The notes under the pieces are model-generated. The model was not told where the DNA came from, searched no databases, and was given only the letters and a program-made list of their open reading frames with translations. Below, one piece after another: positions 3,488 to 55,826 of a DNA stretch of 64,000 nt. Source of the DNA: a virus; IMG/VR virus record IMGVR_UViG_3300026382_000010, positions 42,052-106,051 of that record, one strand, 5' to 3'. A program made the position numbers and the translations under genes. Each line of letters opens with the position of its first letter. Position 1 is the stretch's first letter.

Positions 3488-3488
3488 C

Positions 3489-16343: not shown

Positions 16344-16346
16344 AAT

Positions 16347-17261: not shown

Positions 17262-17264
17262 TAG

Positions 17265-19148: not shown

Positions 19149-19168
19149 CAGTTATTAGGAGGAATGCT

Positions 19169-19915: not shown

Positions 19916-19971
19916 TTTGACATACAATTAGAATTTTAGTTTGAATACGTAGAAGTGGAGGCGCATATAAT

Positions 19972-37082: not shown

Positions 37083-37154
37083 CTGTTGCGTACCTCTTTT
37101 CTTGCTTTAATTTTTTGGTTAAAAATAAAAAGAAAAAGGAGTGTTTGCGGCATA

Positions 37155-38624
37155 ATGGGAGTTCCTGATTATATTACTGAAATTCAAAGTTGGCAACAAT
37201 ATAGTAGAGCGCAATTTTTAAAAGTTTATCTTGATGATTATTATGTACGAAATATTGCTACTCTGATTATGCCATACAAGTATTTAACAATTTTCGATTG
37301 TACTCCGAAACTTATTGCAAATAATAAAATCGAATTTAGCCCTGGTTATTTATACTTTGATGGGGCATTTATCAAAGTAAATGATTCATTTACTGTTCAA
37401 TATTATACACGTGATGAACTTCGTCAAAAAACTGTTAATTTCTTCTATATCTATACGAATGCTAGATTTTGGTTACGTATTTTAATTAATAGTCGCCAAA
37501 TTCCAGAAAAACAATATGTCAAGCTTGATTCAATTGTAATTCGAAATGATTTAGTTCCTTTTGTTTACAAGTGGGATCAATTAAAGTCTATGATTAAAGT
37601 TCTAAAAGGCGATGAATTTGTAGAGTTTAAAGATGATGGACTATATGTATACTCTGGAAATGAAAATGTAATTTTGGAAATTAAATTTGATATCCTAAAG
37701 GCTCCACAATGGTTTTTTGGAATTACAGAACTTGGACTCAAATATTCTTCAATCTTTCCTGCGCCATTTATTGGACTTTCCTATTCATACAACTACTTTC
37801 AATGGATTCGATATTTGAATCCAGGATTTGAAATAAAGCTTTCGACAAATTTTGATGACGGTTCATTATATTCATACTACAAGCCTTATCTTAATCTAAA
37901 TCTGCTTGAATGCTTTTACAATGGTCCTCTGGATACTATGCAATCTATCGTTGCATATCGTAAACCAATGTTTGACTACATGACAAATATTTACAAAATA
38001 TATGCTCGTCCATATACAATCCTAGATATCTATAGAGACTTACAAGAAGACACTTTTGATAAAATGATTTTGGCTACATTAATATGGTATCCAAATATCA
38101 AATGGCGAATTTATTATTATCAACCACATCTGCCCAGATTTCTTATGCACATTCTATATCCACCTGGTAACATGCTTGATGAAGAAGTATATAAAGTCTT
38201 CAAGAAATCTATTACGAAACGTATTGTTACAAACGTTGGTACGCTATCACTTTTAAATTACGATATGGATTATCTGAAGGCTTACTTTGAAGATGAACCA
38301 AAAATTTTAAAACCTGGAATGATTATTACAAAAACTCTAACTATTGATAAATGTAGGGAAGTAGCAATAGTTCCAGTATGTTCATTTAAATACATTTTGA
38401 TTGTTGGTAATCAGTATAATCATGACATCATTTTCTTCCGTAATGTTGAAGTACCTACTCAGGTAAACATTACGTTAATTCCTCTTGAAAGTGGGCATTT
38501 TTATGGATTCTCAGTAATTTATAATCGCGATAGAATTATTCCAATTGAAGCAGTCCATATGAATTACACTGCACCTTTTGGTTCCACAAATAATCCGAAA
38601 ATCCATGGAGTCGATATTAAATGA
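37155..38624 (+). CDS. Hypothetical structural protein
   Basis: ATG 37155 after AAGGAG; N-terminal IEFSPGYLYFDGAFI motif shared with the next gene. Confidence 0.65.
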   Translation: MGVPDYITEIQSWQQYSRAQFLKVYLDDYYVRNIATLIMPYKYLTIFDCTPKLIANNKIEFSPGYLYFDGAFIKVNDSFTVQYYTRDELRQKTVNFFYIYTNARFWLRILINSRQIPEKQYVKLDSIVIRNDLVPFVYKWDQLKSMIKVLKGDEFVEFKDDGLYVYSGNENVILEIKFDILKAPQWFFGITELGLKYSSIFPAPFIGLSYSYNYFQWIRYLNPGFEIKLSTNFDDGSLYSYYKPYLNLNLLECFYNGPLDTMQSIVAYRKPMFDYMTNIYKIYARPYTILDIYRDLQEDTFDKMILATLIWYPNIKWRIYYYQPHLPRFLMHILYPPGNMLDEEVYKVFKKSITKRIVTNVGTLSLLNYDMDYLKAYFEDEPKILKPGMIITKTLTIDKCREVAIVPVCSFKYILIVGNQYNHDIIFFRNVEVPTQVNITLIPLESGHFYGFSVIYNRDRIIPIEAVHMNYTAPFGSTNNPKIHGVDIK

Positions 38625-41032
38625 TATATGCTAGCAAGAGTTTAAAACTTGGTTTTAGAGTTTTATACAGAATAAAAGATTACCCAGTTGATTTCGGATT
38701 CTTCTTATCCGCATTAATGGATCCTTATCATAAATCTTGTCTTGCGGGACTAGGTTTAGATATTACTTCAAAAGGCTATCTTAGAGTTGATAATGGTACG
38801 TTTGCATACAATGGTTATGTTGTTGAATTCTTTGATCCTATTTACTTTGATTTAACAAGTCTATATGACTCAAATACTCCTCTTGAGTTTGCATTAAATG
38901 ATTATAAACCAGCATTATCAGTTAGATTTAATTTACCAGAAAACGAATTTGCATCAATAAAATACTTAAGAACCAAAGTAATTTTAAGTCCAAGCAATGA
39001 AGAAAAAGAAATTACATTAGACTTCAGAGATATTGATAATCTTGTATCGCTATATAATACTCGTAACTGGGTTAAACTTGATCGAGAAAAAGACGTTGTA
39101 AAACTTATAACTACACAGCATCTTAATGTAATTGAGGATCCAACTTTTACTTACGATAGTAACACAAATACATTTTACTTTACTGATGAAAACCAGGTGG
39201 ATCGATTTGTAATTTCACTTGATACTAATTCAAATCAATTGTATGCAGGTGTAGTTTCAGTTTCGGATACAAAATTTACTTTATCTGGTAAACCTGAAAC
39301 ATATAAGGCATATATATCATTGGCTGATAATCTAGTAACTGATAATCTTTATGGACTAAGGTTAATTGATAATCGACATCGAAATTATCATACAGCAGTC
39401 TTTACAATTGCCGATGACTTCTATCAAATCAAGGACATAAAAGAAATTTATATAGAGGCAGATACGAGAACTTTACCTGCAGATAATCTAGGATTTTCGC
39501 TTTCACTTGATGGTGGTAAACATTGGATTGTTATTAACAATGTAGGTGCTCCAAATTACATTGGATATTGTGAAGATAATCCAGTTTTCGAAAAACCATA
39601 TTCATTACAATTTATTAACGAGGAGTTACTTCCAAATCTTAAAGACTTTTTAATTTCCTGGTATATGTCGATTACTCCTAGAAAGTATGCAGTTACAATT
39701 CAATATGATTACGAAGCAAAAGAAATTCGGTTTTACTTGAAAGACAAGGAATCCTTAACGCATGAAGATTTAATCTTAGGTTGTATATTACAGGAGCAAG
39801 GGCGTTATAAGATAACTTACCATGATTGGGAAATGCCCCGAATGATCCCTTACGCCGAGTGGAAAGATGACAATGTATATACACTTCTTGAAACGTATGG
39901 TATTGATCCATTTAGTCAGCTAATTTACTACAATAATATTGTATCAGTAAATAATGCACTCGCAAATACTTTGAATTTTGATTACGATGTATGCAAAGTT
40001 ATTCTTCCAAAGAATACGCAAGATTACATTTTGGAAAATGGTTTTCTATATGGACCATTTATCTGGCTCAGATACAATGGAAAGATGAAATTTACAATTG
40101 ATCCACCACCAAATGCAAAATCTGTTATAGTTGATGTAGGCGCAGTGAATGGAGAATTCGATGTATATTTAAATGGACAAAGTATTCCCTTAAAATACGA
40201 AGTTCCTTTAAGAACGCGAAACATTCCTATTGAATTTGAAATCAAACCAAGAGTACCACAGGAGAACGTAGATACTGAGTTTCCATATCTTTTGACAAGT
40301 GTAAATGTGTATTTTAATACAGATCAAATCAATCTTAGAATTAATAACATTAATCACTACAAACGTCCGGTAATTGAATTCTTTGATATTGAACCTAAAC
40401 ATGTAGTTGTTTTCGATGACGATTTAGCTGAATTTCAACTTCCCGAATTTCCATTTAAGATTTCATATAGAGTATCAAATCCAAATGGACTTCCTGTAAG
40501 AGTATCATTATTTGCAGAAGATAATCTACTTTTATACACATCTGACGACCTTGAAGAATATAACGTTGGAGTTGTACTTCCAACAGCAAATCTGCAGTAT
40601 TTTGATTCAAATACTAAAACAATTCCACTTACTTTTGAAGCATGTGACAATAGCGCATGTACACGCTATAGCATAGGCTTAGAAGTTATACATCCAAAGG
40701 ATTCACCAATAGGCTATGGAAAAATTCTAGGATTTGATTACTGTTGGATTTACGATACGTTGGTTAAGTTTAATATCTCAGGTTATACTCCAATTCCAGT
40801 TGATTGGTTTGATATGCGTGTTAAAATAGTATTTGATACAAGTAAAGATGAAAATGATCCTGATAACTACACTGAATTTTCTTTAAAGGAAAATGCTTTC
40901 GAGTTCAAAGATATAGGGTACGCATATCCAAAAGCAGGAACGACTTATACTGCTAAAGCCGAATTACGAATTTATAGCGGTAAAAGATATAAGGTAATCG
41001 ATACACGATACTTACCAGTCGAAATTCCATAA
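38621..41032 (+). CDS. Putative baseplate/fibre structural protein
   Basis: 803 aa beta-rich; LRVDNGTFAYNGYVV, SLDGGKHW Asp-box-like motif, Ig-like C-terminus, 3 DSN; ATGA overlap. Confidence 0.6.
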   Translation: MIYASKSLKLGFRVLYRIKDYPVDFGFFLSALMDPYHKSCLAGLGLDITSKGYLRVDNGTFAYNGYVVEFFDPIYFDLTSLYDSNTPLEFALNDYKPALSVRFNLPENEFASIKYLRTKVILSPSNEEKEITLDFRDIDNLVSLYNTRNWVKLDREKDVVKLITTQHLNVIEDPTFTYDSNTNTFYFTDENQVDRFVISLDTNSNQLYAGVVSVSDTKFTLSGKPETYKAYISLADNLVTDNLYGLRLIDNRHRNYHTAVFTIADDFYQIKDIKEIYIEADTRTLPADNLGFSLSLDGGKHWIVINNVGAPNYIGYCEDNPVFEKPYSLQFINEELLPNLKDFLISWYMSITPRKYAVTIQYDYEAKEIRFYLKDKESLTHEDLILGCILQEQGRYKITYHDWEMPRMIPYAEWKDDNVYTLLETYGIDPFSQLIYYNNIVSVNNALANTLNFDYDVCKVILPKNTQDYILENGFLYGPFIWLRYNGKMKFTIDPPPNAKSVIVDVGAVNGEFDVYLNGQSIPLKYEVPLRTRNIPIEFEIKPRVPQENVDTEFPYLLTSVNVYFNTDQINLRINNINHYKRPVIEFFDIEPKHVVVFDDDLAEFQLPEFPFKISYRVSNPNGLPVRVSLFAEDNLLLYTSDDLEEYNVGVVLPTANLQYFDSNTKTIPLTFEACDNSACTRYSIGLEVIHPKDSPIGYGKILGFDYCWIYDTLVKFNISGYTPIPVDWFDMRVKIVFDTSKDENDPDNYTEFSLKENAFEFKDIGYAYPKAGTTYTAKAELRIYSGKRYKVIDTRYLPVEIP

Positions 41033-41054
41033 TTCTTTTTGAGGTTGTATAAAA

Positions 41055-41348
41055 ATGGTTACTATTGCAAATTTAATGGAGAACTTATTTCCAAAGCGTA
41101 TGCAAAACCTTGTAATTTATGCCAAAACTGAACCTCAAATTCTTACAGAAAATCCGCGAAAGTCATACGTAATAAGAAATATGAATGAAAATAAGATTGC
41201 ATTTCTTGGTGGCCCAAATGTAACACCTGAAACTGGATTTCCTCTTCTACCCGGTGAAGTACTTTATTTAAATACTGCAGCTGATATTTATGCAGTTGCC
41301 GAAGATGAAACAGAAGCAGTTGAACTTCGTGTAATTGTACTATACTAG
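41055..41348 (+). CDS. Small beta-sandwich virion protein (decoration-like)
   Basis: RKSYVIRN....AFLG...VT..TGFPL.PGE.......IYAV pattern common in phage structural regions. Confidence 0.55.
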   Translation: MVTIANLMENLFPKRMQNLVIYAKTEPQILTENPRKSYVIRNMNENKIAFLGGPNVTPETGFPLLPGEVLYLNTAADIYAVAEDETEAVELRVIVLY

Positions 41349-41369
41349 AAACGTAAGGAGGTAGCATGC

Positions 41370-41696
41370 ATGGAAGTTGAAGCGCCAAATATAGTATTAG
41401 AAATCAAAATTAATGGAAACGATGTTGAAATACTAACAAATGTTGATCGCTATACATTAATTGGTATACTCGAAGCATTAAAGCATCAGCTTATAAACGA
41501 AACAGATGCAGCTTACGAAAAAGCAACTTCTGATAAATCCGAAACTAAAAACGCATCCAAAGAAAATAAACCTAATGTAAAACAGGCAATTGAAGGTAAG
41601 CCAATTTATGGCGATCCAAATTTATTTAAAGTAGAGAAAGAGATTTCAGGTCAAATCTGCGATGTTATGAAAAAAATTGAATCCATAATAAAATAA
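41370..41696 (+). CDS. Hypothetical protein
   Basis: 108 aa, AAGGAGGT SD. Confidence 0.75.
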   Translation: MEVEAPNIVLEIKINGNDVEILTNVDRYTLIGILEALKHQLINETDAAYEKATSDKSETKNASKENKPNVKQAIEGKPIYGDPNLFKVEKEISGQICDVMKKIESIIK

Positions 41697-41735
41697 AAAT
41701 GCCTTTGGTAAAATTTAAAGGAGGATTCGCAGGAA

Positions 41736-42842
41736 ATGAATTTAATTGCATATGGTGGAACATTTGTTTCTGCTAGAGATTTGTATGATAAAATTGTAGC
41801 CGCAATTGCAAATGTATTTTCAAAAGAGTGGGATATTACTATAATTGATGATTCACATGCAGTTTTACATTCTCGAGGCGAAGGTGGCCTCGATGATATG
41901 TACTACATGATTGAGTATAACGGTGGTGAAGATTCTGTTTATATGAAAGGAATGCAATTTTATGATTTCACAAACAATACTCCTTCAACATATGGGTTAA
42001 CAAACTTACCTTTCTATGGAATCAAGAAGTTTGACTTATCCGTTTTTCCAGGATACTTCTGGATATACGGGAATGCAGACTATCTTCATATTTTCTACAG
42101 AGGTACAGGATCTTCAGCGGTTCCAGAGTATTTAATTCCAAAACTTATTACCATTGGTAAATTCATTCCATCTTATTCACCAGCGGTAACTTGGGTAAAT
42201 CAAGATGAAATTTTACCTGGAGTTAACGTAACTGTTAAAGTTAATAACGTAGCAATCTTTGAAGTAAACAGATATGTAACAATATCTGGTTTCAATACCT
42301 GGGAAAAGAGTTTAGTTGTAGCTATAGATGAAACAGCTTCTACTATTACTCTTGCATCTGTTGTAGAGCATCACCAAACCCTTTACGATGAAAATGGAAA
42401 CATTGCAAATCCAATTATAATTGGAGAAATGGCTAAACCTTATTTCATTTTCCAAGACTCCTACTACAAACAAGGAGCAATTATTTGGGCATCTGCAATG
42501 GTTTTCCCTAGAATCTCAGGTAGAGCTTTAGGACTTAATGCTAAAGACTATGGTACAAATCAGGGTTCAGGCGTTAGAGTAGATGTATTCAAAGCAGTGA
42601 GAACTCTTGCTGATGCATCCGCTTTAGATATGCTTAACTACGATAGATATCTCTTTGAATATTACCTCTATAAACTAGATGGAGATAACAGAGGATTCTA
42701 CGGAAAATTACCATATCTATATGCAGTAGGAGCAAATGATATCAACTCTGAAACTACAATGATTTGTGATAATACATATCTTTATAGATGCTTCTATGTT
42801 TATGGACTTGGAATGAGTGCAGTTAGAGAATCTAACGCGTAA
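41736..42842 (+). CDS. Probable abundant virion structural protein
   Basis: AAGGAGG SD, 11 of 12 Arg codons AGA as in sheath/tube, own terminator, beta-rich. Confidence 0.6.
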   Translation: MNLIAYGGTFVSARDLYDKIVAAIANVFSKEWDITIIDDSHAVLHSRGEGGLDDMYYMIEYNGGEDSVYMKGMQFYDFTNNTPSTYGLTNLPFYGIKKFDLSVFPGYFWIYGNADYLHIFYRGTGSSAVPEYLIPKLITIGKFIPSYSPAVTWVNQDEILPGVNVTVKVNNVAIFEVNRYVTISGFNTWEKSLVVAIDETASTITLASVVEHHQTLYDENGNIANPIIIGEMAKPYFIFQDSYYKQGAIIWASAMVFPRISGRALGLNAKDYGTNQGSGVRVDVFKAVRTLADASALDMLNYDRYLFEYYLYKLDGDNRGFYGKLPYLYAVGANDINSETTMICDNTYLYRCFYVYGLGMSAVRESNA

Positions 42843-42845
42843 TTC

Positions 42846-42880
42846 AAGCCACCCTGGGGATATCCCCAGGGTGGCTTTTT
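42846..42880 (+). terminator. Intrinsic terminator (32-bp perfect palindrome plus T tract)
   Basis: AAGCCACCCTGGGGAT-ATCCCCAGGGTGGCTT then TTT. Confidence 0.9.
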
Positions 42881-42946
42881 GACTCGCAATTTTCCCAAAC
42901 ATTAACATAGAAAAACTCTATGTTAAAAGGAGTTATAGTGTAGGCA

Positions 42947-45850
42947 ATGCATGGTGATACAACTTACTTCCAACATGGTTATCCGTATACTCCAGATTTA
43001 CCACGTATTAAAAAATATCATCCTTTACCAAAAGTTGAAAAATATATACGGGGAAAAATTTACCCGTTAACTAGATTTCATGGTATTCCTAATAAGCAGA
43101 TTACTCATTTTTTTAAGCTTAAAGCGCAGCGTTTAGTTCCTATAAATTCCAAAACATATCCTCCGCTCAAGATAGGAAAACTTATTTCACTTTGTAACAG
43201 ACGATACGATCGGCGTTTTACTTTTCCGCATTTATACATGAGTCCTTCGCTTCCTAACTTTCACAGACTCTTTTCAAGGGTGTATAATGGAGTTATCCAA
43301 CCTCGTCTAATTTGTGCATTTGTCGATATGAATCTCTTTAAAAAAGTATTGCAAGAATTATTTGAACTTTCCGTTGAGTATCAATTTGTATGTATTCCCT
43401 ATATTTACATTGATTTAGATCGCCCTTGTTTTAAAAGATGTCTCGAACCTGGACAAAACTCCTACATGATTTTAGATATCTCAGATTTATTTGACTGGAT
43501 TGTTAGAAACTATAAGGCATTAGTAATCTCTAAAATTGAACGTGATCGTTTTGAAGCAGAATCAGAGTTGGAAGCATTTGTTGATATTCGTTGTCGTTCT
43601 GGTTTAACATATGGAGTAAGAGATCACGTTCCAAAGGGAACTGAATTAGTATCTGGCCAATTAACTTTTCAATGCGATAACTGTCAAAGTAATATAATCC
43701 TTGATGGATATTTTCTTGCTCGTTTATGGGACTTTTTAACTCCACTTGATGAAATTGATATTCAACCAACAACACTTGTAAATTATACTAAAGTTTGGTT
43801 TTCCAATGAAATTCCCGAGCATGCAGTTTACGCTCCGCGTCTTAAAGAAAGACTATTTTACAATTCTGATGATAACTTTACACGTTGGTATATTACTAGC
43901 ATTACTGATTCCTGGTATTATTTTAGAGACAGTACATATATTGCATACAATACTAAAAAGAAAACAACTACTCTCCTAGAAATTGGTGAGATTATCGATG
44001 AATTCCACAAAGCAAAATTTAGACATGCCTCTCCATTGGCACCTCGAAGAAAAGAAGATCTCTATGTTGCAAATGCAATATTTACCTTCGATTTTCTCTA
44101 TTTAAAACATTTGGACTACTATCATAGACGCTATCTATTTACACATGATCTTTTTTACCAGCATAGTATTCTCTACATTCATCCAATAATTCTACAAATT
44201 CCAATTGTTTTTAAGACAGGTAAAGAAGTTGAATTTGATATGGAATCTGAGATTTCATTTTATTTTGTAGCTCCGCTAAGTAATGAATTTACTTGTGAAT
44301 ATGGAGTATTTGATGCTGGAACTACAGTTTACACTTCAGAATATGAAGATTTAAAACTTGATAGAAAGGTTTTTGAATATAGTGAAATACCTGATAAACA
44401 TGCTCTATTTCAACAAGTATTTATAACACCAAAAACTCAATACCTACATAAACGCTTTCTATTTTCTTGGGATTTCTGGTACAGTAGAACCGATTATAAA
44501 AATACACGTTATGTATTTTTATGGGATTTTCCTGATATCAAAAATCGTCATGTTACATATTTTATAGACTTACCAGGACCGTCTTATCCTGCATTAGGTT
44601 CAATTATTCCATTTCCTAGTACATCTACAAGATATTACAATACACGCTATGATAGAATTTTCCAATTCAAGAGAATTTATATAGAGCTTTTTGCTGGAAA
44701 ACTTTTGACTTTTGAATTTCCATATATTGAAATTCACAAACGTTTATGTGATTTAAAGTCATACTTTTGGAATATTAATAGAGCATTTACATTTGGAAAA
44801 GCTGATTATAAAAACCTAGATCCGATTAAAAGAGCATGGGAAGGTACATACTGTACTGAATCATTTTGGCAACTTTATCTAGAAATATATGCTCCATTTT
44901 TAGGATTCTGGGGAACTTACAGAATCAATCAAATTGTTGATTACGTAAAACAAAACTATCCACATTGGGGTTGGACTAAGAATCTTCCAAGCGATCCTGA
45001 TAAAGCATATCAAGAAATTGTAAAGCATATCCCATGGGTTAACGATTGTTTACCTAGATATTCTCAAGTTAAAAATCTCTTAATTCCTGGTAAAAAAATG
45101 TATAAGAATGCTCCTTTATTCTTACCTGGAATGCATGATGAATATTATGATGCAACATTTTTCAAAGACGGACGTCCTTTTACATTACATAACTGGAAGC
45201 ATTTAGATTGGGAAGAAATTTATCACATATGGCCTGATATGGGATTATATATTCCAGTGCAACCATTAAGGGGTGGGCTTGGTGGAGGACTTCCGGAATA
45301 TAAAAAAGGAAATTTAAAAGCATTGTGGTATATCAATTGTCCGTATACTCCAAGACATTACATTTATAGAAACTTTTTAATTGCTCCCATCTCACCTAGA
45401 CACTATCTATATCCTATGGGTAAACGTGTTAAAATGTATTGCATCCATCTTAGAAATATCGTAGTCTACTGGGAGCAAAAGGCATGGTTAATCGATAAAT
45501 TTCATATGCCTAATTTAGATGAAATTCATGTAAGACAGCATCCTTATCGTTACACACGTCACACTAGATTCTTTACTGGTACTCGTGATTTTGGAATGTC
45601 TACCGTATTGCAATTTAGAAAATTATCTGCAGATACCCAAGAATTGCGAGTTTCATTACAAAGTAATCGCATATTAAATCCTTGGAAAGATATTGATGAT
45701 ACTAACCTTGAAATGTATAAACTTAAATTAAGCACTGACTATACTTACGATTCAAATGCAAAAGATACATTGAATATAGAATTTGATGAACCTCAAGTTC
45801 AAGACTTATTTTTAGAATATTATAAACCGGAGTTAGATTCCAATGATTAG
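42947..45850 (+). CDS. Hypothetical large structural protein
   Basis: 967 aa aromatic/Pro-rich, AAGGAG SD, 2 C-terminal DSN; heads the fibre operon. Confidence 0.65.
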   Translation: MHGDTTYFQHGYPYTPDLPRIKKYHPLPKVEKYIRGKIYPLTRFHGIPNKQITHFFKLKAQRLVPINSKTYPPLKIGKLISLCNRRYDRRFTFPHLYMSPSLPNFHRLFSRVYNGVIQPRLICAFVDMNLFKKVLQELFELSVEYQFVCIPYIYIDLDRPCFKRCLEPGQNSYMILDISDLFDWIVRNYKALVISKIERDRFEAESELEAFVDIRCRSGLTYGVRDHVPKGTELVSGQLTFQCDNCQSNIILDGYFLARLWDFLTPLDEIDIQPTTLVNYTKVWFSNEIPEHAVYAPRLKERLFYNSDDNFTRWYITSITDSWYYFRDSTYIAYNTKKKTTTLLEIGEIIDEFHKAKFRHASPLAPRRKEDLYVANAIFTFDFLYLKHLDYYHRRYLFTHDLFYQHSILYIHPIILQIPIVFKTGKEVEFDMESEISFYFVAPLSNEFTCEYGVFDAGTTVYTSEYEDLKLDRKVFEYSEIPDKHALFQQVFITPKTQYLHKRFLFSWDFWYSRTDYKNTRYVFLWDFPDIKNRHVTYFIDLPGPSYPALGSIIPFPSTSTRYYNTRYDRIFQFKRIYIELFAGKLLTFEFPYIEIHKRLCDLKSYFWNINRAFTFGKADYKNLDPIKRAWEGTYCTESFWQLYLEIYAPFLGFWGTYRINQIVDYVKQNYPHWGWTKNLPSDPDKAYQEIVKHIPWVNDCLPRYSQVKNLLIPGKKMYKNAPLFLPGMHDEYYDATFFKDGRPFTLHNWKHLDWEEIYHIWPDMGLYIPVQPLRGGLGGGLPEYKKGNLKALWYINCPYTPRHYIYRNFLIAPISPRHYLYPMGKRVKMYCIHLRNIVVYWEQKAWLIDKFHMPNLDEIHVRQHPYRYTRHTRFFTGTRDFGMSTVLQFRKLSADTQELRVSLQSNRILNPWKDIDDTNLEMYKLKLSTDYTYDSNAKDTLNIEFDEPQVQDLFLEYYKPELDSND

Positions 45851-47057
45851 AGCATACTTTACTCAGTATGGGTTAGAAGCAGTTAATCGCTCACTAACTG
45901 ATGATGACTATCGAATCAAATTTGCAAAAATAAAGTTAAATGCTACTGCGCATATCACTGATCCGATTATGGAAATTGATTTTAAAGCAACTGATATTCC
46001 TGCTCCATCTGTTGAAGGATATGTAAATAAGATTTACTATGACAAGGATAATCATGGACTTGTCATTCAAGCAGTAGTACCTAGAGGACAACCTGAGGTT
46101 TACGTAAATGGATTTGGAATTTATGATGATGAAGATAATTTGCTAATTATAGGAGCATTTCCTTATGTATGGCGTTACCATACATTCTCAAATTTAAACG
46201 TATTTGTATTTGTCCCACTCTTTTCCAATATGGAAATTCCTGTTGATAAAATCTTTATCAATCCCCCAGAAAATTACGTTGTATTGCAGACGCATATCTT
46301 TTCAGACTATGCATATAAATGGATTGTGAGACATGCGCTCCTACGTTCCGACATTGTCTATAAAGTATTTAATGAAAACGATGAAGAAATTATTCCATGG
46401 CGTGCAAAATTAAATCCTGGTTATTTAGAGCTTGAATTTGAGCAGCCTACTAAAGGAAAAGTTGTTGTTATAGGATATGGAACTGCATGTACTGAAATTC
46501 CAAGTAATGATGAAACTGAAAATCCGCCAGATCTATTGTATACTCAACGTATTCCTGAGTATCCTTACGAATTCCTAATAAAAGATCAACTTCTTACAGA
46601 AACTCGCCTGACTTATACTTTAACTTCAGGAAACAAAACTTATTTCCTCGAGCTACTTAAAAATCTAAACAACGTCGTTACATTTGATAAAATCGAATAT
46701 TTAAATCTAGCGCGTACTTTAATTTTTGCACCTACGGATAATACAGAGGCATATTGTATTTTCAGATTTGAAAAACCAATTACTGGTATTAAAAACGTAA
46801 AGTTTATTTCAAAGGTTTCAACTGAAGAAAACTTGGTTTATAAAAGTGGAATTGATTTCAAAGCATATCTTACAGATTCCAATTATGAACCTATAACTGA
46901 TCCAATTTCATTGAATGCAATTCAGACGGTAGACTCGAATGTAGCATATTATGGTTGCAAAATTGCAACAAGTACCAATTGGGTACGTTGCTATGGATTT
47001 TCACTTATAATGTCTGACGATACAATTTACGATGAGATTCCAAATGAGGTTTACTAA
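45843..47057 (+). CDS. Tail fibre/collar-domain protein
   Basis: N-terminal FTQYGLEA...VNGFGIYD...LLIIG (tail-collar/DUF3751-like), then a W.V.H.L....V.....I.P fibre module. Confidence 0.65.
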   Translation: MIRAYFTQYGLEAVNRSLTDDDYRIKFAKIKLNATAHITDPIMEIDFKATDIPAPSVEGYVNKIYYDKDNHGLVIQAVVPRGQPEVYVNGFGIYDDEDNLLIIGAFPYVWRYHTFSNLNVFVFVPLFSNMEIPVDKIFINPPENYVVLQTHIFSDYAYKWIVRHALLRSDIVYKVFNENDEEIIPWRAKLNPGYLELEFEQPTKGKVVVIGYGTACTEIPSNDETENPPDLLYTQRIPEYPYEFLIKDQLLTETRLTYTLTSGNKTYFLELLKNLNNVVTFDKIEYLNLARTLIFAPTDNTEAYCIFRFEKPITGIKNVKFISKVSTEENLVYKSGIDFKAYLTDSNYEPITDPISLNAIQTVDSNVAYYGCKIATSTNWVRCYGFSLIMSDDTIYDEIPNEVY

Positions 47058-48913
47058 TGAAGTTTGGTCCTTGTGATCCTCAAGCTTTAAATAAAAAACA
47101 AAAGGTTTATAGAGCTTTCTTCTTAAAACCACAAGATTATAGAAATCTTGCATTTGATAGACCAGATTATTCTGAACCAGTATTTTCCTATTGCTACAAC
47201 ATTATTGATATCTGTCCTAATATAACCTATGAAATATCAGTCCTCGATTCAAACTACGTGCATTTTGACTCAAATTGGACGGTTGATACAAACACCAAAT
47301 GTCTCTACTACAATTTAACTGATTTAGGCTATTTCGAATCTTATACAATAACTGGATACATGATGCAGCGATATTTTGAATCTGAATTTCATACAACTAC
47401 TACATTTATTGACTCGAATGGTTATCTGAATATTTACAACAATAAAACTCCAGTTATCGATCAATGGTCGTTGCACTACGTTTTTCGCGACTATCAAAAA
47501 ATACATTTTATAGTGGAAAATTGGGGTTACGAATCGTTTTATACTATAATGGAAGCCGGTTCTTGGAGAGTATACTGGAATATTGGAATTAATGGGTTCT
47601 CAATCTATTTTGAAAAAGATAGAACTGAGTATTTACAGTTTATCATTGACTCCAATATTTCTATTGATGTTGGCCGTTTTGAATTTCTAATTGACAGCAC
47701 TAGTATAAATCTTGGCATTTACAAGTGGGATGAAGATGAAAAGGAATTTGATTCAGTAGCCTCCTATCGTTTCAAACGTTGTATTTTAGGAAATGAATCC
47801 GTTACGCAACTTTCATTTTCTCTTGCAACATTTGAACCAACTGACAAATATGTGAAAATAAGTCCTATAACGGTTGAAAATAGTCGTATTTACTGTCCAA
47901 CAAATTTTGATTCAAATGCAGAGTCTATTTCTTTGGACGTAACTATAAATATTCCGTTGCAATTAATCTACAATACAAAATCGTCTTCATTGATTTTTTC
48001 ATCTACTGACTCAGTCAGATTAAGACATGCCGAGCAAATTCTTATTGATAATGAAGTATTTACATTAGGGGATATGCTTATTGATTATTACTTTATACCT
48101 AAGGATTATAGTATTACAGTTCACTTTAAAGACGTAAAATATGCATTTATTGATAAGTTTTACCTAATAAATCATGATTTACCAGGCGTTGAATTTTATT
48201 TTGGAAAGTCGACCCCTGATTCAAATATTACTATGGATGAATTTATTATTAAAAACGTCTCAGATGAAACCAAATTATTGCTTGCAATAATAACTCCTCT
48301 CAAAGATAAATTTTACATGGATGAATTGACAAAAAGTAAATGTGGACGCTATAAGCTATCTCGTATTACAAATTTTGGACAGTATTTCTTACGTCATGAA
48401 ATTCTAGGATTAAGTAAACATGAACTTACCAATTTCGCATTTAAATTAATTACAGGAACTGACTACTTTAAAAATGCATTCATAAATCAGAATATGGATC
48501 TACAATATTTACTTCTTGAGGAAAATACACATGTTGGTTTACTACTTACGCCAGATAATGTAGAGTTTTGGAATACTACATTATTTGGTAAAGGAATTCT
48601 TTGGGAAATCGTAACGAAACAGTTATTTGAATATTACATTACTTTTCCTATTACGATATATGGTGTTGAAGTTTTATATAGATACAATAGAGAGTATAAG
48701 GTTGTTGCACGTTCATTTTACAGTAAACCTCAATTAATTCCTCCGGAAACCTACTTTACACTTAATTACTTTTTAAAATTTGGACATTATTATTATGACA
48801 GTTTAACTACAACTGAATTTAAACCTGAGTTAGACTGCAATGGATATCTAGATTTACACTATGAAGATGCAGGAGAGCTTTTAATAATTCGCGATGATAT
48901 TGAATTGAAATAA
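47057..48913 (+). CDS. Structural protein, beta-rich with C-terminal collar-like domain
   Basis: 618 aa, 6 DSN motifs, ITNFGQYFL...IYGVEVL...VVARS...IPP. Confidence 0.6.
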   Translation: MKFGPCDPQALNKKQKVYRAFFLKPQDYRNLAFDRPDYSEPVFSYCYNIIDICPNITYEISVLDSNYVHFDSNWTVDTNTKCLYYNLTDLGYFESYTITGYMMQRYFESEFHTTTTFIDSNGYLNIYNNKTPVIDQWSLHYVFRDYQKIHFIVENWGYESFYTIMEAGSWRVYWNIGINGFSIYFEKDRTEYLQFIIDSNISIDVGRFEFLIDSTSINLGIYKWDEDEKEFDSVASYRFKRCILGNESVTQLSFSLATFEPTDKYVKISPITVENSRIYCPTNFDSNAESISLDVTINIPLQLIYNTKSSSLIFSSTDSVRLRHAEQILIDNEVFTLGDMLIDYYFIPKDYSITVHFKDVKYAFIDKFYLINHDLPGVEFYFGKSTPDSNITMDEFIIKNVSDETKLLLAIITPLKDKFYMDELTKSKCGRYKLSRITNFGQYFLRHEILGLSKHELTNFAFKLITGTDYFKNAFINQNMDLQYLLLEENTHVGLLLTPDNVEFWNTTLFGKGILWEIVTKQLFEYYITFPITIYGVEVLYRYNREYKVVARSFYSKPQLIPPETYFTLNYFLKFGHYYYDSLTTTEFKPELDCNGYLDLHYEDAGELLIIRDDIELK

Positions 48914-51412
48914 GTGGAAAGGGTAGTTGTTTTAGAAATGTATTTTAAAGAAAGCGAAATTCCCGCATATCAAAAATTTATCACCGGATATAATTACGGC
49001 GAATACTTTACAGATTATCTACCAGATTTGATTGATGTTGCAATTTATTGTGCAGGTAGTCTTTGGAAACATTGGGAAACTCCAGAATATGATGCAAAAG
49101 TAGAACCTAGTTATTATACAACAGTCCCATATCGTATTGAGTATCCTTGGAATCCATGCCATGAAGATTGGTATAATCCAAAAATGTCCTGGGAAGAAGC
49201 AATTATCACAGTCTTTCCAAAAACTGACGACTATATATTCAATCAATGCTACTATCATCCCATAAAATACGAATCAGTATACCGTGAAAGGTTATTTTGG
49301 GACGTACCTTACAACTACAATACTGAAGAAAGTAAAAAATGGGATAAATATGTAAATATTGAATACGAAACCTTATCTAGTTTTACCTATAACTTTCTAG
49401 TGCCAGATACGCTCAATGTAGATGCAACTTTTGCAAATAATATTGGAAAATGCTGTTTTAAGTATATTTCGGATCCAAGTAACTGGACTCCTATCTACGA
49501 CTCAAATACTAAAACTGACTCAAATGGAAATTATATCGTTACATCAAATTCCAAGATTGTCGACTATAATTACAATACCCAGGTTCAGGTTCCAGTTTTT
49601 AAAATTGATGTTAGTAAACGACAAAAGCTAGATGAATTTTCAATTACCTTTACTTTCCATGATATTCAAAGCAAAAACAATGAATTTAAAATTGACAGAA
49701 GAGGTATTTCTTATCGTATCTGGGCAGATACTAGTCCATTTAGTGCAGTAATTCCATTTGAAACTGAAAAGAAATATACAGTTCAATTTGAATACCATTA
49801 TGACAGTAATTATACTAAGCAGCTATATCTTTATTTACGCGATTCAAATAACAATGCTCTTGCATATTCTCTAATTGAAAATCCCAAAAGCGTAACTACA
49901 TTATCAATTTCTTTTGAAACCGATGATAAACTCAATTATCCACATTTTTTAAAAGATGACGCCTTATTATTTGAAATAATTGATTGCAGTTTAGAGCCTG
50001 AAGTTCATGTGCATCCTAGGATTGAACGCTACGTTCGTCCTATGCGAATGGCTGAATTTATGAAATTTGAATTTGAGTTTCTTAACGATGGAAAATACAA
50101 CCCAAGTCATCTTAGAATTCTTTTTGTGAAATTCTGGAACCAAGGGTTTATAACCTATAGAATTTTCTTAGATGGTTTGGATAACTTTCTCGATTTAGAA
50201 TTTGAGGAAGAAAATGACGAATTTGTTGAAAAGTTTGTCTTAAATATGCTTCCTAACATTAAAGGAGTGGTTTTCGATAGCAATTTCATTAACAAAATGA
50301 AATTTGAATGGCGTATCTTTACAGATATCTACGTTTGGGCATATAATTTACCAGTTACAGGTTCAAAGGATAAATATGGTTATCATATTCCAGTAACCAC
50401 AAATATTAAAAACTGGGTATTAATTGGTTACGATATAGGAGCTGATCGTTATAATATAACTGACTATTTTGAAGTAAATGTAGGAGATCGTTGCGTTCCT
50501 TGGAAGGAAATTAATTTTAGATTGCCATGTCCTGGTTATAAGACACGTGATGGACGTTGGCATGATATACCTTGTAATTGCGGTGGAGATATATTTTATA
50601 GTTGCTACTCAGTATATACTCGTAAACTATTTACATTCATTCGTCCCATTGGTTATAGCCCTCATCTTAACAAAAACGTCATGCGCTTTTTAAAAGTGCT
50701 TGCGCAAAGTTTTAACATCAATGTTAAAATACGCCCTAGATACATTAGGTTACTTAAACAAGCTAGCCCTCCAATTCTTGAGGTAACTAAAAAAGTATAT
50801 CTGCAACCTAAATACCATACTAAATTTCGAGAAACCTTTGACATTGTATTTGCAAATAGATTTGATAAAGCATGGCAATCTGTAAGACGTATTGATTTTA
50901 TCTACGAGTTTTTATTTGGACATAACACAGTAGGCTTTTACAACAAGTATACAGATACATATTATCATTTCAGAGATAGAATTTTGTATACAAAGGACTT
51001 TGAAAATCCGATTAATCATACAAAGGTTTATAGACGTTACATACAATACTTACCATTGTATATTATCGATGATTTCTCAGTAAGCGAATTCAAAATGTAC
51101 TCCACGTTAATTCACTTTACTTTCGAAAACATTGAGTATCACTCTAATGCAAATCTTATACTTGAAGACGTTGTAAAATTACTTGAAGAATATAACTCTA
51201 AGTGGAAATCCAAAGAATATCCTCCAAAGTATCCCTATAAATGTCCCGGTATTTCCTATCATGTCCCACCATCAATAAATCGAGAACTTGCATTTAAATG
51301 GCCAAATGTACCATTTTCTCCTCAAATGTATGATAACTACTACTTTATTCCAGAAAATGAAAATTACTTTGCAAACATAATAACTCCATACCCTTCGGAG
51401 TATTCTGAATGA
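48914..51412 (+). CDS. Hypothetical structural protein
   Basis: 832 aa, 5 DSN, Cys-rich patch. Start uncertain (GTG 48914 or ATG 48938). Confidence 0.65.
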   Translation: MERVVVLEMYFKESEIPAYQKFITGYNYGEYFTDYLPDLIDVAIYCAGSLWKHWETPEYDAKVEPSYYTTVPYRIEYPWNPCHEDWYNPKMSWEEAIITVFPKTDDYIFNQCYYHPIKYESVYRERLFWDVPYNYNTEESKKWDKYVNIEYETLSSFTYNFLVPDTLNVDATFANNIGKCCFKYISDPSNWTPIYDSNTKTDSNGNYIVTSNSKIVDYNYNTQVQVPVFKIDVSKRQKLDEFSITFTFHDIQSKNNEFKIDRRGISYRIWADTSPFSAVIPFETEKKYTVQFEYHYDSNYTKQLYLYLRDSNNNALAYSLIENPKSVTTLSISFETDDKLNYPHFLKDDALLFEIIDCSLEPEVHVHPRIERYVRPMRMAEFMKFEFEFLNDGKYNPSHLRILFVKFWNQGFITYRIFLDGLDNFLDLEFEEENDEFVEKFVLNMLPNIKGVVFDSNFINKMKFEWRIFTDIYVWAYNLPVTGSKDKYGYHIPVTTNIKNWVLIGYDIGADRYNITDYFEVNVGDRCVPWKEINFRLPCPGYKTRDGRWHDIPCNCGGDIFYSCYSVYTRKLFTFIRPIGYSPHLNKNVMRFLKVLAQSFNINVKIRPRYIRLLKQASPPILEVTKKVYLQPKYHTKFRETFDIVFANRFDKAWQSVRRIDFIYEFLFGHNTVGFYNKYTDTYYHFRDRILYTKDFENPINHTKVYRRYIQYLPLYIIDDFSVSEFKMYSTLIHFTFENIEYHSNANLILEDVVKLLEEYNSKWKSKEYPPKYPYKCPGISYHVPPSINRELAFKWPNVPFSPQMYDNYYFIPENENYFANIITPYPSEYSE

Positions 51413-51792
51413 TAACAATTATTAACTATGCCAAACAAAAGAGACATCTAGAGGAAACGATTTTGGCAGCTGTTCAACTTGCACCGCTTGATTATGGCGT
51501 GAATATAAAACTTGATCCATGTGGATCTCCTCAATCATTTAACGTAACTGTTAAAGGTGAACCTGTATTATCCGTTGATTGTATGAAAGATTTTTACGGT
51601 CAAATCTATGGATACAAATTTGATGGAATGTACAATGGGGTTCAATATTTAAAAAGAGATATTGATTCTTATGCAATACAAGATGAAGCAACTCATGTAA
51701 TGGAAACACTATATACTCAAGACTATATAGAAAAAATAAAAGCGGAGGTTTTAGGCGATGAAGAAGATACACAAGATAGTACCAGTTACTAA
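51409..51792 (+). CDS. Hypothetical protein
   Basis: 127 aa, ATGA overlap with the upstream gene. Confidence 0.7.
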   Translation: MITIINYAKQKRHLEETILAAVQLAPLDYGVNIKLDPCGSPQSFNVTVKGEPVLSVDCMKDFYGQIYGYKFDGMYNGVQYLKRDIDSYAIQDEATHVMETLYTQDYIEKIKAEVLGDEEDTQDSTSY

Positions 51793-52072
51793 TGCTAGAG
51801 TATCCTGGACTGATCCTGAAACACATGAAACCTACATTATTCCAAGTCAAGGAGTATACCTTGACGAACTTCCCGAACATGTGGTAAAATTCCTTCAAAA
51901 ATTAAAACTTGTAAAAATTGTTGAAGTTGAGGAAGAAGAAGCTAAAAATAAATTGAAAGAAGAACTTCAAAAATTAAATCCGTTTGCTTCTGAGAAAAAA
52001 GAAAAAGCAGTTAAACAAGATGCGCCAAATCATTTGACAATCGTAGCTGAAAAGAAAAATCCTGAAGCATAA
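51758..52072 (+). CDS. Hypothetical protein
   Basis: 104 aa, GGAGG SD. Confidence 0.7.
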   Translation: MKKIHKIVPVTNARVSWTDPETHETYIIPSQGVYLDELPEHVVKFLQKLKLVKIVEVEEEEAKNKLKEELQKLNPFASEKKEKAVKQDAPNHLTIVAEKKNPEA

Positions 52073-52092
52073 AAAAGTAGAGGCAAAAAGTT

Positions 52093-52716
52093 ATGAGTAC
52101 TGCAACTCTCGAAAAAATCAAATTACCAATTGCCTCGGATACAGAAAAACTCGAAATCAAAAATGTTCATACTGACATTTATCTACCTTTATTTATTACG
52201 GAATTTGCCGATGAAAAACATTATACCAAATTTATAAAGAATGTAGAACGCGTTGTTCGTGCATCACTTGAATACAAAATGTGGCTTAAATTTTTACGTG
52301 AAAATTTGGGTATGACAAAGTGTGTATTTACTGGAGAAACTCTTGAAGAAACTGATGATATCGAAATCCATCATCATCCCTTTACATTATATGACATTTG
52401 CAAAATTGTTGTAGATACTTATTTAAAACAAGGTAAACCATTTTGTACATTTACAATCGCTATGGAAGTTATTCAATTGCATTTTCAGTTAAATGTAGGT
52501 TTTGTACCGATTGCGGGCACTTTGCATAAAAAATTCCATAATGGTTATTTGGAAATTCCTCGCGAGTACATTTACGGAAATCCAAAATATCTAATTGACA
52601 ATTATTACGTAACAGAATCGCTTATTGAAAAATATGAAAAGTATATGTCTGTTACTTTAGATGCAGATATCTATCAAAAATCCTGGAATCTAAAGGATAG
52701 CGAAGATGGTTTATAA
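52093..52716 (+). CDS. HNH-like protein of large phages
   Basis: CVFTG...IEIHHHP...VGFVP....LHKKFH resembles a beta-beta-alpha-metal motif. Confidence 0.55.
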   Translation: MSTATLEKIKLPIASDTEKLEIKNVHTDIYLPLFITEFADEKHYTKFIKNVERVVRASLEYKMWLKFLRENLGMTKCVFTGETLEETDDIEIHHHPFTLYDICKIVVDTYLKQGKPFCTFTIAMEVIQLHFQLNVGFVPIAGTLHKKFHNGYLEIPREYIYGNPKYLIDNYYVTESLIEKYEKYMSVTLDADIYQKSWNLKDSEDGL

Positions 52717-53902: not shown

Positions 53903-53906
53903 ATAA

Positions 53907-55826
53907 ATGGCAAATTTTGGAACTCTAATCCTAACCAATAAAGGGCGCGAGCTGATTGCAAAATCTATAGTTGAAGGATTTGATTTGCAATACTTGTATG
54001 GTAAAGTTGGTGATGGTATTTGGCCTGATAACATTGTACCTGAATTGCTTGAGGATTTAATTTCTCCAAAGGGTATTGCTAAATTTTTAACCTATCCTTA
54101 CATTGAAGACAATGTTATACACTGCGAATTAGTATTTGATAATACAAATGTAACTGAGGGGTTTTATTTACGTGAATTTGGTATTTTTGTAAGAGATGAA
54201 AATGGCGAAGAAGTTTTGTTTGCAGTTGCTTATGACGATGAGCCTACATACATTCCGCCTTCCTCTAGTATGTATTTTGAGGAACGCTTTGAGCTTAAAA
54301 TCCTCATAAGTAATACTTCAGATGTTAAAATCAAAGTTGCTCCTAGCAATAACTTTGTAGTTGCCGACGATTTTAATCGTTTGGTTAATATTTGTAATAA
54401 ATACGGAATTCAATGGAATGAAGGTTCATATATTCCGAAAATACAAAATTGTATTCTCTATTTGCCTATTGCTGACGAGTATGAATTAGGTACGCCCCTG
54501 GAGTACGATCCTTTAACAGGATATTACCAAAAGGCTCTAAATTACGAGAATGTAAACTGGTATTACGTCGATAAAGATATTGTACAATTAACTGGTCCAT
54601 TTCAAACTTTCGATACAAACTTATTAAACCTTCCCGCCAATACATTTTTATATCTCGATTCAAATGGATCGTATACTCCAAATGAAGTTGGAAAATATCC
54701 AATTGCATATTACTTACGCGACGGGATTATTTATACCTTCGGTCCTATTGCAAAACTTTCTTATTTCCTAGCAGATAAATATGCTAAAACTTATAGCGAC
54801 AAAGTTGAGCAAGATTTATTAACTAATTTAGCAAATGTAAAAAGCGAATTACAAACATCAATCGACAACCTAAATACAAAACTGGATACTGTTGATTTAA
54901 ATCATACAAATACGGAAAATGTAATCTTTTCAAAAATTGAGGATTTGCAATATCAAATTATCGATATTAAGAATATTTTTGGAAGCTATGAGATTACAGT
55001 TGATAGTAATAATGCTGAGACATTTGATATAAACGAAGTTCTCTCAAAACCTTATAGCACAATTACAATCTATTTTGCAACAGATATAGCTTTTGAAAAC
55101 CAAACAATTGTAGTTTCAAAGAAAAATATATCACTTATCGGGCAATTAAAGAGCGATGGAACTATTCCTAACATTTCATTTTTAAACACTACAATTTCAT
55201 GTACTGAAGGTAGCCTCACGCTTAAAAATATGAATCTGGATATCAAAAATTTAGCATCGCTTGATGTATTTGCATTTATTAATGCAGCGTATGCAAAAAT
55301 TTATCTTGAAAACTTAAATATTCAATGTGGATATGAATATCTGGTAAATCTAAATGAAGACTCTCAAGTATACTTTAAGTATGTAAACTTACCAGTTGAA
55401 ATTCCAGTTAAACTATGTAACATAGATACCTTTGCAAAAGTATATTTGGAAAACTATGAACCGTATACCTTTGTAGAAATTGATAGTAACGCAAACGAAC
55501 CTAAACTAGATTCAAATGGCGATGTTATTGTCAATACATATTTCCTTTTAGATTTATGTAGCGGCGTTACATATAGTGATTTAGGTGTTCCAACAAATAT
55601 TCTGTATAAGGAAGTATATGTAGGAACACCTGAGGAAACAGTTTACGATTCTAATGCAACTACAGATTCAAACTCTACAACTACTGATTCCAATTCAAGT
55701 ACTACGGACTCAAATTCTACAACCACTGACTCGAACTCTAGTACAACCAATTCCAATATCGTAACTACGGATTCAAATTCTAGTACTATAGATTCAAATA
55801 GTACTACTACAGATTCTAACGCATAG
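53907..55826 (+). CDS. Tail fibre protein (tail-collar/DUF3751 N-terminus)
   Basis: ILTNKGRELIAK, KVGDG, FDNTNVTEGFYLREFGIF, LFAVAY; coiled coil; beta-helix-like region; DSN-repeat tail. Confidence 0.85.
   Translation: MANFGTLILTNKGRELIAKSIVEGFDLQYLYGKVGDGIWPDNIVPELLEDLISPKGIAKFLTYPYIEDNVIHCELVFDNTNVTEGFYLREFGIFVRDENGEEVLFAVAYDDEPTYIPPSSSMYFEERFELKILISNTSDVKIKVAPSNNFVVADDFNRLVNICNKYGIQWNEGSYIPKIQNCILYLPIADEYELGTPLEYDPLTGYYQKALNYENVNWYYVDKDIVQLTGPFQTFDTNLLNLPANTFLYLDSNGSYTPNEVGKYPIAYYLRDGIIYTFGPIAKLSYFLADKYAKTYSDKVEQDLLTNLANVKSELQTSIDNLNTKLDTVDLNHTNTENVIFSKIEDLQYQIIDIKNIFGSYEITVDSNNAETFDINEVLSKPYSTITIYFATDIAFENQTIVVSKKNISLIGQLKSDGTIPNISFLNTTISCTEGSLTLKNMNLDIKNLASLDVFAFINAAYAKIYLENLNIQCGYEYLVNLNEDSQVYFKYVNLPVEIPVKLCNIDTFAKVYLENYEPYTFVEIDSNANEPKLDSNGDVIVNTYFLLDLCSGVTYSDLGVPTNILYKEVYVGTPEETVYDSNATTDSNSTTTDSNSSTTDSNSTTTDSNSSTTNSNIVTTDSNSSTIDSNSTTTDSNA
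55647..55823 (+). repeat. Degenerate 21-bp tandem repeat encoding DSN(S/A)(S/T)TT units
   Basis: DSNATT DSNSTTT DSNSSTT DSNSTTT DSNSSTT NSNIVTT DSNSSTI DSNSTTT DSNA; synonymous codons vary between units. Confidence 0.95.

Follow-up and report, generated by a model that had tools for sequence, protein, structure and literature searches.

Tight turns in proteins normally allow Asp or Asn at the first position, Ser, Thr and other residues at the second, and Asn, Gly or Asp at the third. In β-helices of the pectate-lyase fold, an Asn recurs at a fixed turn on successive rungs and forms an asparagine ladder. β-helix adhesins are also known to be glycosylated in the cytoplasm, by HMW1C-type enzymes and by autotransporter heptosyltransferases. 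The PglB and Bacteroidota glycosylation systems are periplasmic, and virion proteins do not enter the periplasm. Freeman et al. are reported to have shown in 2023 that the capsid and the tail tube are glycosylated in mycobacteriophages. As cited in two reports, mycobacteriophages glycosylate their virions by means of recognizable, phage-encoded transferase genes (PMC11256854, PMC12582341), and the glycosylated protein named in the former is the major capsid protein (PMC11256854). In the Bacteroidota Flavobacterium johnsoniae and Prevotella intermedia, the tripeptide Asp-Ser-Asn (DSN) is glycosylated as a minor O-glycosylation motif (PMC10897501). Here, we analyzed an excess of this same tripeptide in the genome of an uncultured phage, known from one linear 106,051-bp virus record (G000, IMG/VR record IMGVR_UViG_3300026382_000010) with a G+C content of approximately 31%. 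The DNA stretch under study, hereafter the window, is the right-hand 64 kb of this record (genome positions 42052–106051). In the initial annotation, DSN was proposed to be a virion-wide tag decorated, probably by glycosylation, by a cytoplasmic and probably phage-encoded enzyme.

All DSN counts that the initial annotation had given for individual open reading frames (ORFs) were reproduced exactly, which amounts to 36 DSN in the window ORFs and 28 outside a C-terminal heptad array (Table 1). The approximately 8 additional DTN were also recovered (8 counted in the window), and the rough expectation of 5 DSN compares with the value of 4.5 calculated from per-protein composition (z = 14.9). DSN was by far the most enriched tripeptide of the window, the runner-up being EIP with z = 6.3. 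In the whole record, 51 in-frame DSN were present and 7.1 expected, and the highest number obtained in 2000 within-protein shuffles was 18. With 20-residue block shuffles as a local-composition null, and with the heptad tail excluded, the corresponding figures were 43 observed and 7.5 +/- 2.9 expected, with a maximum of 15. The excess is specific at all 3 positions, since other DxN, xSN and DSx tripeptides are at background. In the 9 DSN-rich proteins described below, the 5 remaining orders of D, S and N occurred 0 to 4 times each, compared with 43 DSN. Over the whole record, the remaining 19 DxN tripeptides together numbered 105 (109 expected), among which DAN (2 vs 5.4) and DKN (2 vs 8.3) were low, and neither ESN (6 vs 7.0), NSN (4 vs 8.5), DSD (4 vs 6.8) nor DSG (3 vs 4.1) exceeded expectation. 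Only DTN (14 vs 7.4) and DPN (11 vs 4.5) showed a mild rise. A general enrichment of D-x-N turns, which the initial annotation had named as an alternative cause, is therefore absent, and this candidate was rejected. Composition or AT bias was rejected as well, on the basis of the per-protein and block shuffles, a permutation control, and relatives of equal G+C content.

The excess is concentrated in 9 proteins (6,213 residues in total) that hold 43 DSN with 2.1 expected, an approximately 20-fold enrichment. The other 97 proteins of the record, including the sheath, the tubes and the baseplate wedge, hold 8 DSN, which with 5.0 expected is the chance level, so that the tag cannot be called virion-wide as had been proposed. 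Six of the 9 genes lie in the window (starts 38621, 42947, 45843, 47057, 48914 and 53907) and 3 lie upstream of it (genome positions 25681, 30025 and 32401); the proteins are named hereafter by these starts. Six window proteins carry a single DSN each, namely the sheath and the proteins starting at 4124, 17265, 19169, 23676 and 26551, and jointly they carry no more than chance would give. The DSN excess is thus real, strong, specific, and confined to 9 fibre- or spike-like ORFans.

To describe the sites, we considered the 44 that lie outside the heptad array. The residue before DSN was hydrophobic in 36 of them (background 40%), position −3 was hydrophobic in 24, and positions +3 and +5 were again partly hydrophobic, while DSN was followed by Gly in 11 cases, by Ala in 9 and by Thr in 6. 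This is the signature of two strands joined by a short polar loop. The sites also lie close together, as 11 of 27 gaps between DSN were 35 residues or shorter (6.2 expected, P = 0.018) and several pairs were only 6 to 16 residues apart; 2 proteins end in DSN plus one residue. An AlphaFold2 model of the 25681 protein had a predicted local distance difference test (pLDDT) score of 42.6 overall and of 56–82 over residues 320–530. In this model, DSN402, DSN433, DSN464, and also the polymorphic DLN371, formed the first 3 residues of four-residue inter-strand loops (pLDDT 67–82). The modelled sites, all of them in this protein, therefore sit in loops and are not buried, which fits the surface exposure implied by the initial annotation. 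The modelled region aligned with the tailspike of cyanophage Pam1 (7eea; Z = 11.5, 305 residues, root-mean-square deviation 4.8) and with an Acinetobacter phage tailspike (Z = 11.3), followed by many tailspikes, depolymerases and right-handed β-helix adhesins, although for repeat folds a Z below approximately 13 may mean a common arrangement only and the alignment is thus moderate evidence. If the β-helix holds, the 31-residue spacing of sites 371, 402, 433 and 464 would stack DSN at the same turn of successive rungs. Homologous positions could be compared in 2 cases. The C-terminal domain of the 30025 protein has 2 DSN, whose counterparts in a DSN-free paralogue encoded on the opposite strand (genome position 34900) are D-S-S-G-N and N-T-D, and where the sheath has its DSN, the sheath protein of the relative G001 has D-A-D. 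DSN therefore occupies ordinary turn positions for which other proteins use different residues.

The reading that we favour, while giving it slightly less than an even chance, is that DSN is a lineage-specific tight-turn motif at the strand ends of β-rich distal-tail proteins. We favour it because of the hydrophobic residue before DSN, the Gly, Ala or Thr after it, and the inter-strand loop positions, and also because DSN pairs are clustered 6 to 16 residues apart, as strand-turn arrays or micro-duplications would be. That no modifying enzyme was found (see below) and that the exposed and abundant sheath and tubes are unenriched argue in the same direction. DSN lies between strands, follows a hydrophobic residue, and is equivalent to D-x-N or D-G turns in homologues. 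In the mechanism that we propose, DSN, with Gly, Ala, Ser or Thr as the usual next residue, would close a loop directly after the hydrophobic end of a β-strand, and its carriers would be 9 β-rich and fast-evolving fibres, tailspike-like proteins and receptor-binding proteins of a single lineage. By analogy with Asx turns, ST turns and the asparagine ladders of β-helices, the Asp would cap the turn, the Ser would provide a second capping hydroxyl, and the Asn would take the left-handed position otherwise occupied by Gly. Use of one exact tripeptide would be due to the repeated local duplication of short strand-turn units together with selection for one turn that works well; we infer this last step, which is the weakest of the tight-turn reading.

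Several observations weigh against it. The degeneracy expected of turns is absent, with NSN, ESN, DSD, DSG, DAN, DKN and DNN at or below background and DSN enriched approximately 20-fold. Among hydrophobic-D-x-N sites, 37 of 86 are DSN in this phage, and relatives with an equal G+C content of 30–32% show no preference for Ser; composition and generic structure therefore fail to explain the choice of DSN, and its exclusive use is a trait of this phage and not of its group, of its G+C content or of the fold classes. DSN is also found at 2 extreme C-termini and in segments rich in Ser/Thr that probably lack structure, namely in the 19169 protein of the window and in the heptad tail of the fibre. 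Except for the repeats within the 25681 protein, the flanks differ from one DSN site to another, and no sequence relationship among the 9 DSN-rich proteins was detected even at E = 50. Because the proteins are unrelated and the flanks unlike, a common descent of the sites is not visible. The structural support comes from a single moderate-confidence model of one protein, and for the 47057 protein single-sequence AlphaFold2 gave no usable model (pLDDT 31.8). Paralogy of the 9 proteins, considered as a separate candidate, was rejected as undetectable at this same E value.

To compare the locus with relatives, a 207-residue protein encoded between the last 2 DSN-rich genes was used as query, which returned 10 loci at 38–58% identity in the IMG/VR and JGI metagenomes. 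These relatives have the baseplate block without the roughly 15-kb fibre insertion, and their 20-kb neighbourhoods are without DSN excess. From the gp6-like gene to the 207-residue protein, the distance is approximately 7 kb in 4 of these loci (L004, L005, L007 and L008) and approximately 28 kb here (window 37077–52072 compared). The DSN-rich fibre genes thus appear to be a lineage-specific insertion. The 147-kb relative G001 has 21 DSN with 9.8 expected, of which 15 are in 3 repeat proteins and 6 elsewhere. Most belong to repeats of approximately 50 residues (about 15 of them) that read ...T-T-D-S-N-G-N-I-F-V-C-G and that by eye resemble SBBP-type β-propeller repeats. The repeats are an example, as far as can be told from sequence, of DSN-G-N acting as a purely structural hairpin within this group of phages. 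As a side observation, no tripeptide of G001 is more enriched than VCG and FVC. We also compared near-identical versions (at least 97% identity) of 12 proteins, which differ by 42 distinct substitutions, 31 of them in DSN-rich proteins. Three of the 42 switch a motif site, where the record has DCN and a variant DSN (...P-E-L-D-S-N-G-Y-L in the 47057 protein), DLN and DSN (25681 repeat), or NSN and DSN (heptad), and none of the DSN sites of the record is lost in a strain variant. If the 3 switches are losses in the record, chance alone would give approximately 1.0 in the 31 substitutions, which is not a significant difference; the strain result is therefore suggestive only.

At the DNA level, a degenerate pattern for DSN had 57 matches on the coding strand and 14 on the opposite strand, and in-frame DSN numbered 51 (50 on the coding strand). 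DSN is encoded by 15 distinct 9-mers, and the flanking codons are uninformative at their wobble positions. Together, these results indicate that selection acts on the peptide, as the initial annotation had claimed, with the caveat that the Ser codons are skewed: TCA accounts for 61% and AGY for 10% at DSN, compared with 41% and 37% at other xSN, and with 21% AGY where DS is followed by another residue than N. This skew hints that many DSN sites may be young or of shared ancestry. A DNA-level motif was rejected on the grounds of the 57 matches against 51 in-frame DSN, the 15 different 9-mers, and the lack of conserved wobble or flank. D-S written with TCN creates GANTC, which is not unusual in number (341 vs approximately 310), and DS followed by a residue other than N is not enriched.

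We then looked for an enzyme that could modify DSN. None of the 106 ORFs of the record matched a Pfam family of glycosyltransferases, protein kinases or other protein-modifying enzymes, the sole kinase being a deoxynucleotide monophosphate kinase, and six-frame searches of the record at E ≤ 1 gave no GT2 (PF00535), GT1 (PF00534), Maf/MptE (PF01973) or GT41 (PF13844). The phage-encoded enzyme that the initial annotation supposed is accordingly not matched by any glycosyltransferase or protein kinase in these ORFs or frames. Pfam scans of the same ORFs did not detect terminase, portal, capsid or DNA polymerase families either and CheckV estimated the record to be approximately 49% complete, which indicates that half of the genome is absent from it. 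Other assemblies of 77–171 kb carry the same proteins, and because 2 of these are 130,814 bp and 170,721 bp long, the phage genome is probably of approximately 200 kb. As the record lacks half of the genome and the host could conceivably provide an enzyme, the failure to find one lowers the probability of a modification but is weak evidence.

Modification of DSN is the rival that we keep alive, because the motif is stricter than usual turns and because of the Ser/Thr-rich DSN heptads. According to this explanation, which we consider unlikely, a cytoplasmic enzyme, provided by the host or by a gene in the half of the genome that was not assembled, would read hydrophobic-D-S-N on fibre and spike proteins and modify the Ser (by O-glycosylation or another O-linked group) or the Asn, with sites gained and lost between strains. 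Strictness at 3 positions suits recognition by an enzyme better than it suits a turn, and Thr would be partly accepted at the centre, as the number of DTN suggests, 10 of the 14 following a hydrophobic residue. The motif occurs in unrelated proteins and in unlike contexts, the Ser/Thr-rich C-terminal heptad array included, the enrichment is absent from relatives, the modelled sites are in predicted loops, and the switches of DSN with DCN, DLN and NSN in 3 of 42 strain substitutions look as gain and loss would. Those switches are nevertheless not significant if they are losses, and the hydrophobic residue at −1 and the Gly or Ala at +1 are what a turn predicts. Capsid-proximal and abundant exposed proteins are untagged, unlike those of mycobacteriophages, and the other proteins do not significantly avoid DSN (8 vs 5.0), which also speaks against a sequon, as does the lack of a modifying family in the 106 ORFs and of a glycosyltransferase in the 6 frames. 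Cytoplasmic glycosylation of β-helix adhesins by HMW1C-type or heptosyltransferase enzymes would be a suitable model; the Bacteroidota and PglB systems, acting in the periplasm, would not. Precedents for parts of the explanation exist in the virion glycosylation of mycobacteriophages, as described in the reports cited above (PMC11256854, PMC12582341), and in the acceptance of DSN as a minor O-glycosylation motif in two Bacteroidota (PMC10897501).

Identity by descent seems improbable to us. Under it, micro-duplication and recombination would have multiplied a few ancestral strand-turn units during the making of the fibre genes, and the tripeptide would be all that has not yet diverged in the copies. 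The heptad array and the repeats of approximately 31 residues in the 25681 protein hold 14 of the 51 sites, close pairs lie 6 to 16 residues apart, and Ser codons are far from equilibrium, as expected if many sites share an ancestral GAY-TCA-AAT. No residual similarity of flank or wobble position is found, however, between sites of different proteins, DSN is written in 15 distinct 9-mers, and a constant DSN amid randomized surroundings would still need selection on DSN. Another kind of recognition, by a fibre-assembly chaperone, by a metal ion, or through many weak contacts of polar Asp/Ser/Asn loops with a host surface polysaccharide, is in our judgment very improbable. The strict motif and its confinement to distal, host-contacting proteins would agree with it, the ORFs of 97–127 amino acids between the fibre genes could be chaperones, and 2 proteins have weak carbohydrate-binding module (CBM) leads. 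On the other side, we know of no chaperone or metal site that uses DSN, the residues after DSN misfit calcium loops of the DxDxDG type, and the explanation makes no prediction that is testable from sequence alone. Tight turns at strand ends, with which the sequence context agrees better, remain the reading that we prefer.

The features of the locus are collected in Table 1.

Table 1. DSN-bearing features and neighbouring or related genes. Positions are those of the window unless marked as genome positions or given with a locus name (L002, L014); aa, amino acids.
Feature	Position	Strand	Remarks
803-aa ORFan	38621..41032	+	3 DSN (residues 83, 179, 662), 1 DTN; no Pfam or PHROG family
967-aa ORFan	42947..45850	+	2 DSN (935, 964) near the C-terminus; ends ...PELDSND-stop; no family match
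404-aa protein	45843..47057	+	2 DSN (345, 364); weak tail-collar fibre N-terminal domain
618-aa ORFan	47057..48913	+	6 DSN (64, 71, 119, 198, 285, 388)
832-aa ORFan	48914..51412	+	5 DSN (196, 202, 297, 310, 455)
639-aa tail fibre	53907..55826	+	phrog_7037 tail fibre (E = 1.2e-22), PF12571
Tandem D-S-N-S-S/T-T-T heptads	55647..55823	+	8 DSN and one NSN unit; the 53907 fibre ends DSNA-stop
Tail sheath	19972..21963	+	single DSN (121)
207-aa protein	52093..52716		phrog_12252 (E = 8e-45)
K-P-E-L-D-S/C-N peptide	48815..48845		at the polymorphic site of the 47057 protein
25681 protein	genome 25681-27837 (L002:5681-7837)
30025 protein	L002:10025-11716	+
34900 protein	L002:14900-16471	-	paralogue of the 30025 protein
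Spherulin4 (GH135-like) domain protein	genome 21889-23061 (L002:1889-3061)		E = 5.8e-23
G001 repeat protein, 1063 aa	L014:8289-11480	-
G001 repeat proteins	L014:2032-3207 and 3227-4453

The 38621 ORFan sits in the fibre-gene insertion past the baseplate block, and its 3 DSN are all kept in strain variants. The 45843 protein matched PF12571 (E = 2.6e-4) and the tail fibre family phrog_1162 (E = 0.002). In the 47057 protein, residues 593–595 form a polymorphic seventh site, which is DCN in the record (GAC TGC AAT, with the Cys codon at window 48836–48838) and DSN in 2 strain variants. Searches of 5.8 billion proteins and of cultured phages returned no homologue of this protein, which gave only weak β-sandwich or CBM leads. 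The 48914 protein, possibly a carbohydrate-binding receptor-binding protein to judge from a weak CBM_4_9 match (E = 0.0095) and otherwise LamG/CBM leads only, matched nothing but itself in an exhaustive HMMER search of 1.8 billion proteins and had no homologue in cultured phages. The N-terminal tail-collar fibre domain of the 53907 fibre (residues 1–160) is free of DSN and is followed by 4 scattered sites (251, 366, 526 and 535) and the C-terminal heptad array, whose NSN unit reads DSN in one strain variant. The array was not found elsewhere in IMG/VR, the sole match being a chance one in a contig of 53% G+C. PDB sequence searches with 7 neighbouring or DSN-rich proteins gave no match. Small ORFs of 97–127 amino acids lie between the fibre genes.

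Some further features of these proteins were noted in passing. The K-P-E-L-D-S/C-N peptide of the polymorphic site in the 47057 protein recurs at the extreme C-terminal end of the 967-residue protein, and could be a short shared module or a coincidence. The central 350 residues of the 25681 protein are rich in Thr, Ser, Asn and Leu, include repeats of approximately 31 residues, and contain many N-x-S/T triplets (residues 186–215). A few genes upstream of this β-helix tailspike-like protein lies the gene for the Spherulin4 domain protein, a possible exopolysaccharide hydrolase. The 30025 and 34900 proteins have in common a C-terminal domain of approximately 100 residues (37% identity) that looks Ig-like by eye, and strain variants of the 30025 protein differ at 7 positions that all fall in residues 50–80, which resembles a hypervariable patch. 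The 207-residue protein is found at 30–37% identity, in 2 places per genome, in AR9/PBS1, phiR1-37, Staphylococcus jumbo phages and Listeria phage LPJP1.

Regarding the remaining gene content, the record encodes a contractile tail, with a sheath that shares 27–31% identity with its counterparts in phiR1-37, PBS1/AR9 and a metagenomic relative, 2 tube-like paralogues, and a baseplate wedge similar to T4 gp6, together with genes for nucleotide and 7-deazaguanine metabolism. No phage tRNAs were found in the record, and a search of genome contigs with half of NrdD as host probe gave no match. Within genome positions 1–20000, Pfam detected a Cas12f1-like TNB domain, a serine resolvase and a helix-turn-helix domain, possibly an element of the IS607/TnpB type, as well as a type IB topoisomerase (Topoisom_I, E = 5.5e-22), an ATP-dependent DNA ligase, ThyX, RecA and a two-gene NrdD.

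Should DSN be no more than a favoured turn, the case would show that a single exact tripeptide is able to prevail in the loops of unrelated and fast-evolving receptor-binding proteins of one phage lineage, and would be a warning for searches that infer sequons from enriched motifs. As a modification site, DSN would be a readable tag for fibre decoration in a little-known group of large phages and would define by sequence a new protein-modification system of a phage outside the actinobacteriophages, restricted to fibre and tailspike proteins. Whether virion glycosylation is widespread beyond the mycobacteriophages could then be approached directly by mass spectrometry of DSN peptides.

Compared with the systems described above, DSN has the first 2 residues of the Bacteroidota D-(S/T)-x motif in common with it, but in Bacteroidota O-glycosylation the third residue is preferably hydrophobic or small and the substrates are exported. 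The parallel drawn in the initial annotation did not hold up, as the tripeptides that this system favours are all at background (DSA 2 vs 5.3 expected, DSI 12 vs 9.6, DSL 10 vs 11.7, DSV 9 vs 6.4, DSM 1 vs 1.6 and DST 10 vs 7.3). The 3 N-termini read by eye had no obvious signal peptide and looked cytoplasmic. The PglB sequon D/E-x-N-x-S/T is resembled by 7 of the 8 heptad units and by 12 of the 44 other sites, which read D-S-N-x-S/T. PglB takes Asp or Glu, any residue but Pro at the first x, and obligatory Ser/Thr at +2, whereas in this phage the x is fixed to Ser, Glu brings no excess (ESN 6 vs 7.0) and Ser/Thr at +2 is not required. The earlier parallel with PglB also fails on the frequency of this +2 residue, which at 27% of sites compares with 16% for all Asn of the DSN-rich proteins, and on the other DxN, which are at background. 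Mycobacteriophages provide a precedent for the cytoplasmic decoration of phage structural proteins, and differ from this phage in that no transferase gene was found in the available half of its genome and that only fibres are tagged. The hairpins of SBBP-type repeats, which read D-S-x-G-N-x-Y/F-V-x-G, and of Big-type bacterial Ig-like domains are similar in sequence, as seen in the D-S-N-G-N repeats of G001 and in F-I-D-S-N-G-N-E-V of the 30025 protein, which by eye resembles the Big-type D-x-N-G-N-x-V; the 9 DSN-rich proteins nevertheless lack a Pfam repeat family, self-similarity and a periodicity of approximately 50 residues, their DSN being irregularly spaced, and DSN is followed by Gly in only 11 of 44 sites. 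With β-helix tailspikes and adhesins, finally, the 25681 protein has in common a DSN every 31 residues or so, at a predicted inter-strand loop of a tailspike-like model. The 8 other DSN-rich proteins have no visible rung periodicity, and whereas asparagine ladders fix the Asn alone and leave its neighbours variable, it is the exact tripeptide that recurs in this phage.

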